Shown here: in pieces, positions 33,167-37,227 of the stretch
Numbering within the stretch: the stretch's first letter is position 1
Layout of the letters: each line of letters begins with the position of its first letter
NCBI GenBank assembly: GCA_965247095.1
Contig: OZ251997.1
Span: 4,000,001 to 4,064,000 of the forward strand
Direction of reading: 5' to 3'
Source of the DNA: Candidatus Multivorans sp.
GTDB lineage: Bacteria; Acidobacteriota; Thermoanaerobaculia; Multivoradales; Multivoraceae
Length of the DNA: 64,000 bases
Made by a program: the position numbers and the translations under genes
Notes under the pieces: model-generated
Database searches by the model: none
What the model was told of the DNA's origin: nothing
Seen by the model: only the letters and a program-made list of their open reading frames with translations

Positions 33167-33302
33167 TTCGCTATAAGTCTAGCATTCCCCGCGATTGCGC
33201 GGCAGAAACCGGGTGCTGCTGCCCTTCTGGCCGGATGCGGCGCAAAACGCCGGCCCTCGGGAGTTTTACCGCGTTGCGGGGAGCCAAGGCACGGAGCGCA
33301 CG

Positions 33303-33448
33303 CTTGCATGGAACAAACCCCTCGTCCTGGCCGGCCCTTCGTGCCTAATGCGGGCGAGACGCCCGCGTTCCCCAGGGCGGACCGAAGTAGCGACCACGCT
33401 CTTACGGTGTTCCCTGCGCGACAGCGCAGCGATACCGCTGTGGGTACT
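33303..33448 (-). mobile_element. Putative ~145-bp non-autonomous IS110 derivative carrying a REP-like palindrome
   Basis: Begins CTTGCATGGAACAAAC like the IS end and ends with the same terminal 40 bp as the full IS. Confidence 0.6.
33348..33377. repeat. REP-like palindrome ATGCGGGCGAGACGCCCGCGTTCCCCAGGG
   Basis: Related copies near 15197-15215, 18035-18053 and 51986-52003. Confidence 0.75.
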
Positions 33449-33500
33449 TGCATGGAACAAACTGATGCTGGTTCCTTTTGGGTGAAGCGGATTCCGGGAT

Positions 33501-34820
33501 TCAGGCGGCTTGTTCAACGGCCACGAGCTTCAGGTTGAGGCGTCTGGCCTGTCGCTGGAGGTTCTTGAGTTGGCGTTCGCGCCGGACGGCCTCCATTTCG
33601 GCGAGGTCGCGTTCGACGTACTCTTCGCCGTGCGTGAGCATGGCGAAGATCATGCGGCCGAGCTGGTGGGCGGTTGCCTTGACCGCCCTCGCGGTGTCCA
33701 TGCGGTGCATTCGGCGTCGGTGGGATGCGCCGATGGCGGTCTTGCTGTTGCGGGCGGTGGTTGCGGCCATTCGCAGCGCCTGGCCGACCCGGTTGGTGTG
33801 TTGTCTGGGCTTGCCTTTGAGGCGTTTGTCGCCGCTGATGTTGGTCGGCGGAGCCAGACACAGCCACGAGCAGAAGTTGCCCTGCGAGGGAAACCGGGAC
33901 AGGTCCGGGCCGATCTCAGCGGCAAACGTCAGCGCCGTTTCGACGCCAATGGTCGGGATGGCGACCAGGTCCACTCCGAGCATGCGGTGCAGCCGCTGGC
34001 GCAGGGCGTGCTCGCGGACCTTCGAGTCCGGCGGCGAAGCCTCCCCTGCGCCGTCCTCAGCCAGCTTGTCGAGTTCGGCGTCGATGCGCTCCTCGCACAT
34101 CTCGATCTGGCCCTGCAGCATGTCGTGGCGCGCCAGCGCCTGCCTGAGGGCGAACAGATGCTCGTCGCGCCAATTGCCCTCGAGACTCGCTGCGATCGTC
34201 GCCGCGCTCGCCTTGCACCGGCCGTCACGGTGGCGGGCCAGCACCTCGCCGTCCCGCTCGCCGGCGACGATCGCGCGCACGATGAGCTGGCCGGTCTTGC
34301 CCATGATGTCGCTGAGCACGTTGTCCAACTGCACGTTCATCTGCAGGAGCGCCTTCTGAACGTGCTGCACCGAACGGCTGCGGTCGCGGATCAACTGCCC
34401 GCGCTGACGCGTATAGGAACGCAGCGGGCACAGCGCGTCCGGCGCACGAAACGCGCTCCGCAGCAACCCGTAGCTCATCAACTGCCGGATCCACTGACAG
34501 TCCAACACGTCGCTCTTGCGACCGCTCACCTGCTTCGTCGCCTTCGGATTCACCAGGTAGACCTCGAAACCCGCACGGTCGAGCACCTCGAACACCGGGA
34601 TCCAGTACACGCCCGTGGACTCCAACGCCACCTGCCGCACGCCGTGCGCCTCAAGCCACGACGCCATCGCCTCAAGATCGCGTGTGAACGACCCGAAGCT
34701 GCACACCGGGCGCTCGAAACGCGACGGGTCCACCGCCACGTAGTGCTTGCGCTTGCCCACGTCGATCCCCGCACAATCCGGGTGAACGACCTCCAGACTC
34801 TCCGCCTTCCTGCTCGCCAT
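33501..34820 (-). CDS. IS110-family transposase/recombinase
   Basis: AGIDVGK, ALESTGVYW, RKSDVLD (DEDD), C-terminal ISG serine; SD AGGAGG. Confidence 0.96.
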   Translation of the reverse strand: MASRKAESLEVVHPDCAGIDVGKRKHYVAVDPSRFERPVCSFGSFTRDLEAMASWLEAHGVRQVALESTGVYWIPVFEVLDRAGFEVYLVNPKATKQVSGRKSDVLDCQWIRQLMSYGLLRSAFRAPDALCPLRSYTRQRGQLIRDRSRSVQHVQKALLQMNVQLDNVLSDIMGKTGQLIVRAIVAGERDGEVLARHRDGRCKASAATIAASLEGNWRDEHLFALRQALARHDMLQGQIEMCEERIDAELDKLAEDGAGEASPPDSKVREHALRQRLHRMLGVDLVAIPTIGVETALTFAAEIGPDLSRFPSQGNFCSWLCLAPPTNISGDKRLKGKPRQHTNRVGQALRMAATTARNSKTAIGASHRRRMHRMDTARAVKATAHQLGRMIFAMLTHGEEYVERDLAEMEAVRRERQLKNLQRQARRLNLKLVAVEQAA

Positions 34821-34847
34821 CTCCAGCACCTCCTGTACGATTCAAAT

Positions 34848-35010
34848 GGTCGCGCTGGACAGAGACCGCGGCGGAAACGTCACTCTTGCATACGGGGTCG
34901 CGGCAAAAGCTGCGCCGCCAGCGTCAGAACGCCGATCACGGTCCGGGCCAAACTTGCATTGCGGGTGCGAACACACCAGTGCTTCGACGGCCTCGCTGCC
35001 CAGCGCGACC
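34848..35010 (-). ncRNA. Putative IS110 bridge (guide) RNA
   Basis: 15-bp closing stem (34996-35010 with 34848-34862), two internal hairpins each flanked by a ..CT guide and ATGCAAG; TTCTGC-17-TAGAGT promoter-like motif just upstream. Confidence 0.7.
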
Positions 35011-35151
35011 CAACTCTACGCATCCTGCAACGACCGCAGAATCCACCACCCGTTCCCTGCGCGACAGCGCAGCGATACCGCTGTGGGTACTTGCATGGAA
35101 CAATCCCTGTTCCCTGTGCGTCAGCGCGGCGCGGACGCCGCGACTCGACTC

Positions 35152-37227
35152 CTAGGCCTGCGTCAGGCTGGCGGCTTCGAGGTTCTCGATCGCCTGCAGG
35201 GTGAAAGTCTCGCCATCCATCTCGACCTCGGCGCCGGGCTCGGAGCCGAGCAGCTTGACGGCGAGGTCGGACTCGTACGAGATGATTCCGCGCTCGGGTG
35301 CGCTTTCCCAGGGGCCGAGGATGGCCAGAGTGCGCTGTTCGCCCCTTTCCGACTCGAAGACCGCCCGGTTGCCGATGCGGAGCTTGTCGCAGGCCGCGGC
35401 GGCGATGTCAATCGGCGTGGAGCGCTGCAGATCCTGCTGCAGTTGCGTGGCTATCGAAGTCAGATACTCGTGGCGTTGACGGGCCGCCTTGTACTCGAAG
35501 TTCTCGCGCAGGTCGCCGAGTGCGCGCGCTTCTTCGATCGCTCTGCGATTGGCTGGCAGCTCCTTCCCGGCCAGCTCCCGCAGTCTCTCGCGCTTTTCTG
35601 CGATTGAGGCCGGCAGGGCGTAGAGATCGCTGTGGTCGGTGTCCTGGTCGGCCACCAGATCGGGGAACTTCAGGTGCAGTGCCGCGAGCAGAGGCTCACG
35701 CCGGTAGTCCTCGAGCGCCGCGTGACGGATCGAGACGTCGGCTTGCCGGGCCTCTTCCAGGGTCAGTTCGGGCAGCAGCTTCGGGACCGTGCCGCCGGAG
35801 TCGAAGAGGGCCTTGAGGCGGAGTCGGAACGGGGCGAAGGCCTCGTGCCTCAGGGAGTGGATCAACAGGTTGAGGAGGCGGCTCTGCCGCCCGGCGCGGA
35901 GTGCCGGCTCGGCCGCGGCGCCCTCCGCGAGCCAGGTGAAGGCCGCTGGCGTGCGATGCGGCTGAACTTGGGCGCGCGCGGCGCAGCGGCGCAGCAGATC
36001 CTCGTCGATCAGGCCGGCGATCGTGCCGATCGCCTTCGTGTCGGTCTCCAGGAGGAAACGCTTCTCAAGCACTTCGCGCCAGTCGCTGCGACAGTCGGGC
36101 AGGAGGGTGTATGCCTGCTCGCGTGGACCGCGCTGCTCGATCGACGAGAAGAAGTCCAACGGATCCTCCAGGTTGGCCAGGAGTTCCTCCGCGGGCCATG
36201 AGGGCTCGGCGCCGAACCGCTCCAGTGCGCAGCGAATCTCGAACGCGAGCGCCGGCTGCTTACCGGTCAGGCGCTGGCCCAGGTCGTCCAGGAAGGCCGC
36301 CATCCGATCCCGCAGCTCCTGCGACTGATTCGCCGCTCGCCGCAGCAGGGGGACCTTGGCGCGGTTCGGCGCCCGCCTGAACTCCTGCCAGAGCGAACTC
36401 TCGGCGTCGGTCGCTTCGACCCAACGATAGGTCTGCCGGGATCCGCCGGACGACAGGACCTGCGCCTGCTTCCGCGCGCTGGTCCACCAACTCGACCAGC
36501 GTCGCTCGGGGATGATGCCGACCACGATGGCCCGCACCTCGGCCCCCGTCAGCGGGCGGTCGTAACTCTTGAGCGTCTGCTCAAGCAGCTTTGGCGGCTT
36601 CAACGTCGCCAGTTGCTCCGGTTCTTCGAGCTTCCGTCGCAGCACATGCTTCGGGGGCAGCAGGGTGAGCATCTTGCCGGCGGCCCGGAAGCCGACCGCG
36701 ACTCCCTTCGCCTTCTCGAGGTCGACCTTGAAGGTCTGCAGCGGCATGTTCACCTGGGCGATGCGGCCGACTCCTCGGGCCGTCATCTCGACGATGTCGC
36801 CGCGCTCGAATGCCATCAGGTTGCGGAGCCGGTCCACCTTGTCCCAGAGCTTGAGCGTCTCCTGCCGTCCCCGGTCCAGGTCCAGTTCGTGGAGCAACTC
36901 GTTCAGATCGGACTCGCGGTCCCGGTAGAGCTCGTGCAGAGTCTCGAGAACGGTCTCATAGACCTGGCCGCTGCGCAGATACCTGCCGCCGGCGCCGCGG
37001 ATCAGGTCCAGGCGGTCCGCCCACAGGCCGCGCTCCTGCAGTTGGTCGTCGAGCAGTTCGAGCAGTGTGCCTACACGCTCCGCTTCGCCGAGTCGAACCA
37101 GCCCACTGGTGATGGCGAGGAAGGCGTCGACCGCGATCGCTCCCTCGACCGCGGCCAGCCACTCTGCCTCGACTGCGTCGATGTCACCGCTGGCGAGGCT
37201 GTCTTGAATGCGTTGCGGGATCCTCAT
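35152..37227 (-). CDS. Long GreA/GreB-domain transcription factor
   Basis: C-terminal EARALGDLRENFEYKAA and ILGPWES...IISYES; ~540-aa N-terminal extension; ATG 37227. Confidence 0.88.
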   Translation of the reverse strand: MRIPQRIQDSLASGDIDAVEAEWLAAVEGAIAVDAFLAITSGLVRLGEAERVGTLLELLDDQLQERGLWADRLDLIRGAGGRYLRSGQVYETVLETLHELYRDRESDLNELLHELDLDRGRQETLKLWDKVDRLRNLMAFERGDIVEMTARGVGRIAQVNMPLQTFKVDLEKAKGVAVGFRAAGKMLTLLPPKHVLRRKLEEPEQLATLKPPKLLEQTLKSYDRPLTGAEVRAIVVGIIPERRWSSWWTSARKQAQVLSSGGSRQTYRWVEATDAESSLWQEFRRAPNRAKVPLLRRAANQSQELRDRMAAFLDDLGQRLTGKQPALAFEIRCALERFGAEPSWPAEELLANLEDPLDFFSSIEQRGPREQAYTLLPDCRSDWREVLEKRFLLETDTKAIGTIAGLIDEDLLRRCAARAQVQPHRTPAAFTWLAEGAAAEPALRAGRQSRLLNLLIHSLRHEAFAPFRLRLKALFDSGGTVPKLLPELTLEEARQADVSIRHAALEDYRREPLLAALHLKFPDLVADQDTDHSDLYALPASIAEKRERLRELAGKELPANRRAIEEARALGDLRENFEYKAARQRHEYLTSIATQLQQDLQRSTPIDIAAAACDKLRIGNRAVFESERGEQRTLAILGPWESAPERGIISYESDLAVKLLGSEPGAEVEMDGETFTLQAIENLEAASLTQA

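Follow-up and report, generated by a model that had tools for sequence, protein, structure and literature searches.

An ISPpu9-like IS110 element whose putative bridge RNA carries one guide in both loops, and its head-to-tail arrays

What becomes of an insertion site when the RNA that selects it carries the same guide in its target loop and in its donor loop? As bridge recombination is currently described, the target is cut in two by insertion and ends up in a pair of hybrid junctions, so that no new site arises and the geometry disfavours excision. The question is raised by a minus-strand IS110-family element in the window, by which we mean the whole 64,000-nucleotide stretch of Candidatus Multivorans DNA that was analysed, where small non-coding units adjoin the element head to tail. 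Our answer, drawn from sequence comparison, is that the locus probably contains an ISPpu9-like IS110 element with a two-loop bridge RNA aimed at the right end of its own family, and that the element probably builds arrays in this way.

The element and the units beside it

The element spans 1643 bp (window 33447-35089), its ends being set by the junctions that it has in common with two mini-elements, A and C. Its recombinase ORF (33501-34829, minus strand, stop codon included) matches the N-terminal DEDD/RuvC-like domain PF01548 over residues 20-164 (E 4.2e-25), the C-terminal Transposase_20 domain PF02371 (E 2.6e-12) and the NCBIfam equivalog NF033542 (259.2 bits, with a cut-off of 140). The true start is likely the ATG at 34820, 8 nt past an AGGAGG sequence (34829-34834); the alignment of relatives begins at residue 4. 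The terminal 38 nt of the left end (35052-35089, minus strand) begin with TACCCAC, form two small hairpins and are also found in A and C, and the right-end terminus, TTGTTCCATGCAAG (33447-33460, minus strand), is likewise common to the mini-elements. Between the stop codon and this terminus lie 40 nt (33461-33500, minus strand) for which the second copy of the IS in the genome (1057357-1058987, identity 98.9%) has a segment of equal length and unrelated sequence. A perfect direct repeat of 52 nt (33409-33460 and 35052-35103) is present, and the motif CTTGCATGGAACAA stands at three junctions. The dinucleotide AG closes the left flank and the right end alike, in the window and in the relatives, and is the crossover dinucleotide; the core reads CT on the strand opposite the recombinase gene and AG on the sense strand. 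Site-specific insertion, no terminal inverted repeats and a single core dinucleotide at both junctions are thus found here, as in the IS110 family.

On the left-end side of the IS lies mini-element B, 59 bp (35090-35148, minus strand), in which a left-end-like hairpin segment is joined to a family right end that ends in ATGCAAG. What the earlier note had taken for a decayed unit at 35092-35130 is this intact element, which has 23 copies in the genome (each at least 90% of the unit, identity 91-100%), most of them directly following CTAGGAG or TAGGAG. Here the heptamer CTAGGAG, the landing site of B, occupies 35149-35155 (minus strand) and includes the TAG stop (35152-35154) of an 807-aa minus-strand ORF; of 60 related insertions, 37 also have it as their left flank, and in those 37 the loop-1 heptamer has the same sequence. 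B is an intact member of a sister lineage and would be the landing pad for the IS.

Mini-element A (144 bp, 33303-33446, minus strand) has no ORF; it begins with the same 38 nt as the IS and finishes with the IS's right-end terminus. Its 5 copies, two of them in tandem, lie at 4 loci and are 100% identical over 141-144 nt; mini-element C, of 97 bp, has 2 genome copies, also 100% identical. Like MITEs, the mini-elements have both IS ends, no ORF and near-identical copies at unrelated loci, and their flanks vary from locus to locus. Might B, A and C instead be host repeats of the REP/BIME type, unrelated to the IS and merely targeted by it? B closely follows stop codons and forms hairpins rich in GC, a further abundant repeat with many genomic hits (matches 33331-33381) is present in A and C, and ISPpu9 and ISPpu10 are well known to target REPs. 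Host repeats nevertheless make an extremely improbable explanation, as the IS left end over 38 nt, and its right end over 14 nt, recur exactly in A and C, and B has the family's left-end architecture together with its right end, at the CTAGGAG site of sister ISs.

The head-to-tail array that the earlier note described for this locus, with a mini-element that measures 144 bp, has counterparts at 6 other loci of the genome. The arrays read B-IS-A (the window), B-C'-IS, B-A-A, B-A (two loci) and B-C (two loci). Every IS, A and C unit lies directly behind an ATGCAAG right end, either that of a B element or that of another unit in the same array, and at most two units follow B. The order of the units gives no support to the polarized growth that the earlier note suggested: one array has the IS in the proximal position, the other in the distal one. 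At ten B elements that have an exact ATGCAAG, no further unit follows. The flanks that terminate arrays read C.T in 6 of 7 cases, those of unoccupied B sites in 2 of 10 (Fisher p 0.015), a hint only, from a small sample that is confounded by B's own original target and in which the distal flank of the second IS copy (CCTGCGC) is left unclassified. Four public runs of one sample carry the stretch as fragmented contigs, none of which spans the IS; among these contigs, which cannot show absence, there was neither an empty site nor a circle junction, and a circle junction is indistinguishable from the IS-A junction within 52 nt.

A two-loop RNA upstream of the recombinase gene

Does the 5' untranslated region of the recombinase gene encode a bridge RNA? 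The consensus of 29 relatives places a core of 164 nt there, on the same strand as the gene (34848-35011, minus strand), bounded by the two strands of the closing helix P1 and ending 13 nt upstream of the AGGAGG ribosome-binding site. The consensus has 7 helices and two internal loops, with 94.6% of cells paired and compensatory change in 24 of 38 pairs; 0 of 500 shuffles reach the observed pairing, and slid controls give at most 45.6% of cells. The closing stem that the earlier note saw in this region is found again in three ways: as an inverted repeat (I3, arms 34848-34865 and 34993-35010, 18 nt, 89% complementary), in the minimum-free-energy fold, and as consensus helix 1, where compensatory change affects 7 of 7 pairs. 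Together the domain matches and the consensus structure bear out the description of the locus as an IS110 element with a two-loop bridge RNA.

A search of 33200-35300 against Rfam matched no family at E values up to 1, and the covariance model of the RNA, run on its own genome with 150 of 4277 first-look candidates scored, gave no match besides the two IS copies. RNA-library contigs from two libraries cover 34780-35020 and 34823-35103 in close relatives, DNA carry-over being possible. A simple scan for a sigma-70-like promoter gave 0 sites for the bridge RNA. In the alignment of relatives a conserved TAnAAG/TAGAGT-like box lies just 5' of helix P1, and we record it as a lead only.

Guides, flanks and ends

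What do the two loops recognize? On the 3' strand of loop 1, the heptamer AUGCAAG (heptamer 1; 34953-34959, minus strand) has the sequence of the flank that precedes the left end, and is the putative target guide. AUGCAAG stands again on the corresponding strand of loop 2 (heptamer 2; 34885-34891, minus strand), as the putative donor guide; there it has the sequence with which the right end finishes, over 7 nt. That one 3' guide occupies both loops was the central observation of the earlier note; it stands, and so do the motif positions given with it (on the plus strand, CTTGCAT at 34953-34959 and 34885-34891, AGTGC at 34978-34982 and AGCGT at 34920-34924).

The assignment of the heptamers comes from the relatives. 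Among 60 related insertions, which have 14 different heptamers in loop 1, heptamer 1 equals the 7-nt flank before the left end exactly in 56 and with one mismatch in 4, so that guide and flank change together, as the earlier reading implies. In the 52 of these relatives for which a right end was found, heptamer 2 equals its last 7 nt exactly in 48 and with one mismatch in 4. The match of heptamer and flank is beyond chance, since, of 578 trials with the foreign heptamers of other lineages, 1 gave a hit within the equivalent 100 nt, against the exact 56 of 60 for a lineage's own heptamer. Mutual information is maximal at the columns of heptamer, flank and right end, with same-base fractions of 0.96-1.0. 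The closest full relative (protein identity 86%; 14 copies in genome G024 and 1 in G027) reads CUAGGAG in loop 1, and in 15 of 15 copies its left end is preceded by CTAGGAG; it retains AUGCAAG in loop 2 and at the right end. By such covariation loop 1 is the putative target loop, and loop 2 the putative donor loop.

The 5' strands of the loops are a different matter. In loop 1, the 7-mer GUCGAAG (34982-34988, minus strand), followed by CA and CU (34978-34981), is the proposed guide for the flank past the right end. Over 48 RNA-flank pairs, 222 of 336 positions pair between this 7-mer and the distal flank; shuffled pairs give 194 +/- 6.6, and 0 of 2000 shuffles reach the observed value. GUCGAAG predicts a CTTCGAC-like flank. 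Among the distal flanks observed, the number of paired positions ranges over 0-6 of 7, and for the internal junction it is 4 of 7; the distal flank of the window's array, CGTGCGC past its last ATGCAAG (33296-33302, minus strand), pairs at 4 of 7 as well.

The earlier note had read 5-nt left guides on these strands, GCACU and ACGCU. Both are rejected, being nearly invariant while flanks vary, and the other target guide would instead be the GUCGAAG 7-mer just upstream of GCACU. ACGCU (34920-34924, minus strand) belongs to loop 2, on its 5' strand; throughout the clade it hardly varies, across lineages with differing flanks, and among the related insertions it covaries neither with the flank nor with the left end. 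In the consensus structure, the segments that follow the two heptamers pair with each other, which places ACGCU in loop 2 and rejects a reading of loop 1 as running from heptamer 1 to ACGCU (the IS621 order, with the left guide 5'). The sites predicted from the 5-nt guides do lie where they were said to lie, ACGCTTGCAT at 33300-33309 and GTACTTGCAT at 33444-33453 and 35087-35096. Since ACGCU is nearly invariant while flanks differ, however, the 10 of 10 match at 33300-33309 is explained only in its CTTGCAT part, and as a full match it is largely fortuitous.

For the left-end side, neither covariation nor pairing among the related insertions identified a donor guide. A contiguous 7-mer in the 5' strand of loop 2, considered as a left-end guide, matches poorly, at 3 of 7 positions in the window IS and in the G024 relative, and a CAGCG match deeper in the left end shows no covariation. 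Compared by eye, the handshake dinucleotides after the heptamers (UU and AG) show no clear fit to the published rule.

How the arrays may arise, and what they would mean

With AUGCAAG as both heptamers, the element would target the right end of its own family. The recombinase-RNA complex would insert a circular form directly behind any family right end reading ...ATGCAAG, and in this genome such sites would be the 59-bp B mini-elements and any copy already inserted. As the incoming element carries the same 14-nt terminus, the right-end junction would again be a full target, and the left-end junction would be identical to the circle (donor) junction. That insertion recreates the target had been proposed by the earlier note, and it follows from the coinciding guides, by which a full target and a full donor site would both be regenerated. 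Further units, whether the IS or 144-bp and 97-bp mini-elements mobilised in trans, could then stack head to tail. Excision would be an ordinary, fully matched reaction of donor with target, not a reaction between hybrid junctions.

Is the identity of the two heptamers needed at all? Arrays might also arise by half-match recombination, using the donor arm only, or by unequal crossing-over or slippage between the repeats of 14-52 nt, with heptamer identity a by-product or irrelevant. The survey of Hu et al. 2026 (10.64898/2026.08.14.744561) lists tandem non-coding units in 468 cases, along with 437 IS modules in tandem, with unit boundaries enriched in left-donor-only matches, and such half-match units mean that guide identity is not required for arrays. 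The CTAGGAG-guided relatives L024, L047 and L054 also adjoin family elements, and 59-bp B-B tandems are present, yet a resident element with B's left end was not found in the genome. We nonetheless think such an origin unlikely here. Identical A and C units lie at unrelated loci, always behind ATGCAAG (that of B, or of A in B-A-A), and have both IS ends, which argues for site-specific insertion and not local duplication. Identical heptamers, moreover, recur along with arrays in two other relatives, L053 and L058.

It is conceivable, but highly unlikely, that the window element is a dead-end variant, in which heptamer 1 was overwritten, by mutation or by conversion from loop 2, and useful targeting was lost, the local arrangement being older. 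The IS copies number just two, and the heptamers of L053 and L054 differ at only 4 of 7 positions, so that a change of heptamer is mutationally easy. One would hardly expect of a dead end, however, that both copies should have intact 442-aa ORFs of 99% identity, or that each should follow ATGCAAG at a locus of its own, next to another kind of unit. The mini-elements whose left end is the one specific to this IS have 100% identity across 4 and 2 loci, which indicates recent mobilisation.

If, as we prefer, the element is aimed at its own family's right end, which known system comes closest? By its ends and its tandem partner, the nearest known case appears to be ISPpu9 with MITEPpu9. ISPpu9, of Pseudomonas putida KT2440, recombines at AG at both ends and has a tandem MITE alongside (PMC12288879). 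Both are IS110-family elements with AG at both ends in the sense of the recombinase; conserved boxes mark the two ends, a small palindrome lies close to the left one, and a long structured 5' UTR contains the bridge RNA (PMC12288879). MITEPpu9 (ssr9), like the mini-elements, is a non-autonomous partner with the same ends, lying head to tail downstream with the junction AG shared, and it too occurs alone or duplicated (PMC12288879). ISPpu9 targets a REP sequence, whereas the window element's target guide is its own family's right end; the portions of the ISPpu9 account that bear on this contain no guide mapping and no hint that the target guide equals the element's own right end (PMC12288879).

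The likeness to IS621 lies in a recombinase with DEDD and Tnp domains, in an RNA that lies in the left end, its target loop preceding its donor loop, and in loops whose 5' strand ends in CU and whose 3' strand ends in AG, core included (PMC11208160, PMC11208158, PMC13626964). IS621 has four distinct guides, whereas the two 3'-strand guides of the window element are identical; its insertion leaves hybrid junctions, and its excision proceeds via an X-shaped, less efficient complex (same sources). The CT core is on the RNA-sense strand in IS621 and ISPpu10, and on the opposite strand in the window element, as in ISPpu9. Unlike that of IS621, the window element's RNA has a global closing helix that encloses both loops. 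The expanded IS110 loci of Hu et al. 2026 (10.64898/2026.08.14.744561) also have tandem non-coding units and IS modules beside recombinase genes, with unit boundaries that retain left-donor sequence; those units are ascribed to half-matches, whereas in the window element a full target and donor would be regenerated. We found no description of identical target and donor guides in the texts consulted; the supplementary tables of Durrant 2024, of the ISPpu9 report and of Hu et al. 2026 may contain cases.

What evolutionary steps could lead to a self-directed guide? Target guides of the right-end type in the clade read ATGCAAG, ATGAAAG, ATGCGAG and ATGGAAG and need at least 3 changes on the recombinase tree; by this count, at least three lineages have gained them independently. 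A Pseudomonas relative (L069, 57% identity) targets a REP-like hairpin. We suggest, tentatively, that this clade of IS110 elements is a network in which bridge RNAs have repeatedly been re-aimed at their own or a sister's right end, yielding a natural, self-extending docking array of which mini-elements take advantage. Such re-aiming may be driven by family members inserting into the DNA that encodes the target guide, and two loci, L091 and L042, look like intermediates.

An element with a guide common to both loops would be an exception to the accounts with which we began, its target and donor site both being regenerated. With 14 variants of the guide and their matching flanks, this single well-aligned clade offers a compact natural data set on the guide rules of ISPpu9-type elements, and the case bears on stacking cargo step by step, and on integrating it reversibly, by means of engineered bridge RNAs. 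Coinciding guides predict that insertion and excision should be of equal ease and, if true, are a simple explanation for the head-to-tail arrays of IS and mini-elements. Integration would then be fully reversible, with both junctions complete substrates and the landing sites self-renewing.

The insertion sequence and its bridge RNA

The element assigned to the IS110 family in the earlier note is a minus-strand insertion sequence (IS) of 1643 bp at window 33447-35089, with ends common to both genomic copies. The assignment stands: its recombinase ORF (33501-34829, minus strand) matches the profiles of the IS110 recombinase domains PF01548 (E 4.2e-25) and PF02371 (E 2.6e-12), and NCBIfam NF033542 with 259 bits against a cut-off of 140. 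The real start is likely the ATG at 34820, 8 nt past AGGAGG. The second copy (98.9% identity) lies at 1057357-1058987 of the genome, which is one 4.6-Mb contig. In the direction of the recombinase gene, TACCCAC opens both copies, right behind sequence ending TTGTTCCATGCAAG, and an identical 14-mer closes the right end of both. The stop codon is followed in both by 40 nt of mutually unrelated sequence reaching to the right-end terminus (window 33461-33500; genome 1057341-1057380, locus L006); the copy 1 version resembles the IS of G024, a genome of the same genus, and the copy 2 version resembles a relative of 94% protein identity (L002/L021). Such resemblances, in copies that are otherwise 98.9% identical, suggest that lineages have exchanged modules.

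Relatives were collected from the same genus and from public genomes, the public set comprising 76 loci of 43-94% protein identity, whose hosts are mostly uncultured Pseudomonadales and allied MAGs. The stretch from left end to start codon aligns well among relatives. For a 164-nt RNA core (window 34848-35011), 29 distinct sequences were aligned, and the consensus (RNAalifold and pair count) has 7 helices, with 94.6% of cells paired and compensatory changes in 24 of 38 pairs; none of 500 shuffles scored as high, and slid controls reached at most 45.6%. The bridge RNA is a closing helix around two internal loops, in each of which an inner hairpin stands between a 5' and a 3' strand. These loops are the two parallel modules described in the earlier note, all of whose coordinates and motifs are correct. 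No Rfam family matches the RNA. Two RNA-library contig sets, which may be DNA, cover the bridge-RNA region of close relatives. In the closest relative, L002/L021 (G024 2127747-2132072), the left end is missing entirely, as is the bridge RNA; it is homologous only from about 40 nt ahead of the start codon onward.

What each loop specifies

The closest full relative (86% protein identity; 14 copies in G024 and 1 in G027, another genome of the genus) has CUAGGAG in loop 1 where the window IS has AUGCAAG, and CTAGGAG directly precedes its left end in 15 of 15 copies. It retains AUGCAAG in loop 2 and ATGCAAG at its right end. An ORF start was available for 74 loci, both 3'-strand heptamers were located in 67, and in 60 the junction lies 200-300 nt from the start codon. 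In these 60 the loop-1 heptamer matches the 7 nt in front of the left end, without mismatch in 56 and with one mismatch in 4. A right end was found in 52 of them, and the loop-2 heptamer matches its final 7 nt, without mismatch in 48 and with one mismatch in 4; in the other 8 none was found within 200 nt. The loop-1 heptamers are of 14 different kinds and the loop-2 heptamers of 9, and a foreign heptamer was present in the corresponding segment in 1 of 578 trials. Mutual information is maximal at exactly the heptamer and end columns, with same-base fractions of 0.96-1.0. The guides thus change together with the flank or end that they match, which makes loop 1 the loop for the target and loop 2 that for the donor. 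Each heptamer closes with AG, the crossover dinucleotide that they share.

The proposed second target guide is the 7 nt before CA-CU on the 5' strand of loop 1 (GUCGAAG in the window IS). Over 48 combinations of RNA and flank, it pairs with the 7 nt that directly follow the right end at 222 of 336 positions; shuffled pairings gave 194 +/- 6.6, and none of 2000 reached 222. Predicted and observed distal flanks agree at only 0-6 of 7 positions. GCACU, earlier proposed as a guide, is the last base of GUCGAAG plus spacer and core pair. ACGCU of loop 2, also earlier proposed as a guide, hardly varies among relatives whose flanks differ, and therefore the perfect 10-mer noticed at 33300-33309 is explained by a guide only in its CTTGCAT half. 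A guide for the donor's left-end side was sought in the RNA/end comparison of relatives, and none was found.

The RNA is the same as the canonical one when the core is oriented as CT, with 5' strands ending in CU and 3' strands in AG; the CT strand would here be opposite to the recombinase gene. Judged by the published description of its ends and MITE, the nearest known system is ISPpu9. It is reported to have AG at either end when read in the sense of the gene, conserved end boxes, and, downstream in head-to-tail order, the non-autonomous MITE ssr9 (PMC12288879).

Mini-elements and arrays in the genome

A genome-wide search for the right-end 14-mer gave 40 matches at no more than 2 mismatches, most of which close a 59-bp unit, B, at its 3' side; B is the probable landing pad. 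BLAST against the same genome found 23 copies of B with at least 90% of the unit covered (91-100% identity), and what had been taken for a decayed unit beside the IS is one of these, intact. The usual place of B is a gene end, right behind CTAGGAG or TAGGAG; the CTAGGAG that precedes the window's B contains the TAG stop of an 807-aa ORF. B-B tandems of 59-bp period lie at genome 196511-196628 and 2035507-2035624. A covariance-model scan of this genome, in which 150 of 4277 first-look candidates were scored, found neither an element with B's left end nor a second bridge-RNA type.

Units A (144 bp) and C (97 bp) both have the termini of the IS itself, 38 nt at the left and 14 nt at the right. 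A, at window 33303-33446, is the mini-element of ~145 bp already recognized in the earlier note, and has 5 copies at 4 loci, 100% identical over 141-144 nt; C occurs twice with 100% identity, and a diverged copy (C') adjoins IS copy 2. A GC-rich hairpin repeat inside A (33331-33381), present in opposite orientation inside C and in dozens of genomic copies, belongs to an unrelated, REP-like family, which the mini-elements either captured or received by insertion. In another sample, a contig of RNA-library run X21 joins window 33468 to 35047, right-end and left-end termini with 3 other letters between; it is a minimal mini-element of ends only.

Every IS, A and C unit is directly preceded by a right end ending in ATGCAAG, belonging to B or to a unit of the same array. 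The head-to-tail arrays are B-IS-A (the window), B-C'-IS, B-A-A, B-A (two loci) and B-C (two loci). They are short, and 10 B elements with exact ATGCAAG are empty. Of the two IS copies, one adjoins B and the other lies at the far end of its array, which gives no support to the polarity once proposed.

Identical guides and predicted site regeneration

In the window IS, the target and donor half-sites on the same side are identical for at least 14 nt. It follows directly from these sequences that, after insertion, the right-end junction would be the original target and the left-end junction the circle junction, both regenerated because the target and donor heptamers are identical. A second insertion could then occur at the same place. 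An integrated copy would also have a full donor site at one junction and a full target site at the other, in direct orientation, the configuration given by Durrant et al. for programmed excision. The junctions of IS621, in contrast, are hybrids after insertion, and its excision complex is described in PMC13626964 as X-shaped and less efficient.

How might the arrays have been built? We infer that they arose by guided re-insertion. They could also have been built without guide identity, by a loose far-side requirement or by half-match events; CTAGGAG-guided relatives likewise adjoin family elements, and guide identity is therefore perhaps unneeded for arrays.

Right-end-type targets recur in other lineages. 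In L053 (Candidatus Foliamicus) both loops read AUGCAAG, and the IS follows a mini-element located at CTAGGAG; its near-identical sister L054 has CUAGGAG, and 11 of 262 non-coding positions differ, 4 of them in the loop-1 heptamer. In L058 both loops read AUGAAAG, and its IS has a mini-element on either side in one array. Further lineages target a right end of another type, namely ATGAAAG (L056, L066, L070), ATGCGAG (L059) or ATGGAAG (L087). At L066 an IS ending in ATGAAAG is directly followed by a second IS with AUGAAAG in loop 1; the recombinase matches there (1201-2490 and ~2808 onward) are different ISs in direct tandem, with identities to the query of 66% and 77%. Right-end-type target guides require at least three changes on a 27-row recombinase tree, from which loci with an ORF under 400 aa or without anchors (L058, L066, L070 and L087 included) were excluded.

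Two further loci deserve mention. At L091 (990-1080), a mini-element of ~85 nt ending in TTCCATGCAAG lies within the DNA for an IS's loop-1 heptamer (CTAGG...), and ATGCAAG now precedes the loop's 3' helix; this is possibly an intermediate in re-aiming a guide. At L042 (2520-2900), a second copy adjoins the ATGCAAG of a complete IS directly. It comprises its recombinase gene and only the 3' portion of the bridge RNA, starting exactly behind its own loop-1 heptamer, which looks like the trace of an insertion into guide-encoding DNA. The label of the window's genus is Candidatus Multivorans, of the Acidobacteriota, whereas nearly all other hosts (L021-L096) are gammaproteobacterial MAGs, a split that suggests transfer between phyla, or mislabelled bins.

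The observation of the earlier note, the same 3' guide in both loops, is confirmed; the interpretation given there holds in essence but errs in several details. Comparison of guides and ends gives good support to the particular feature of this element, a target guide that equals the donor guide, in an ISPpu9-type IS110 with mini-elements.
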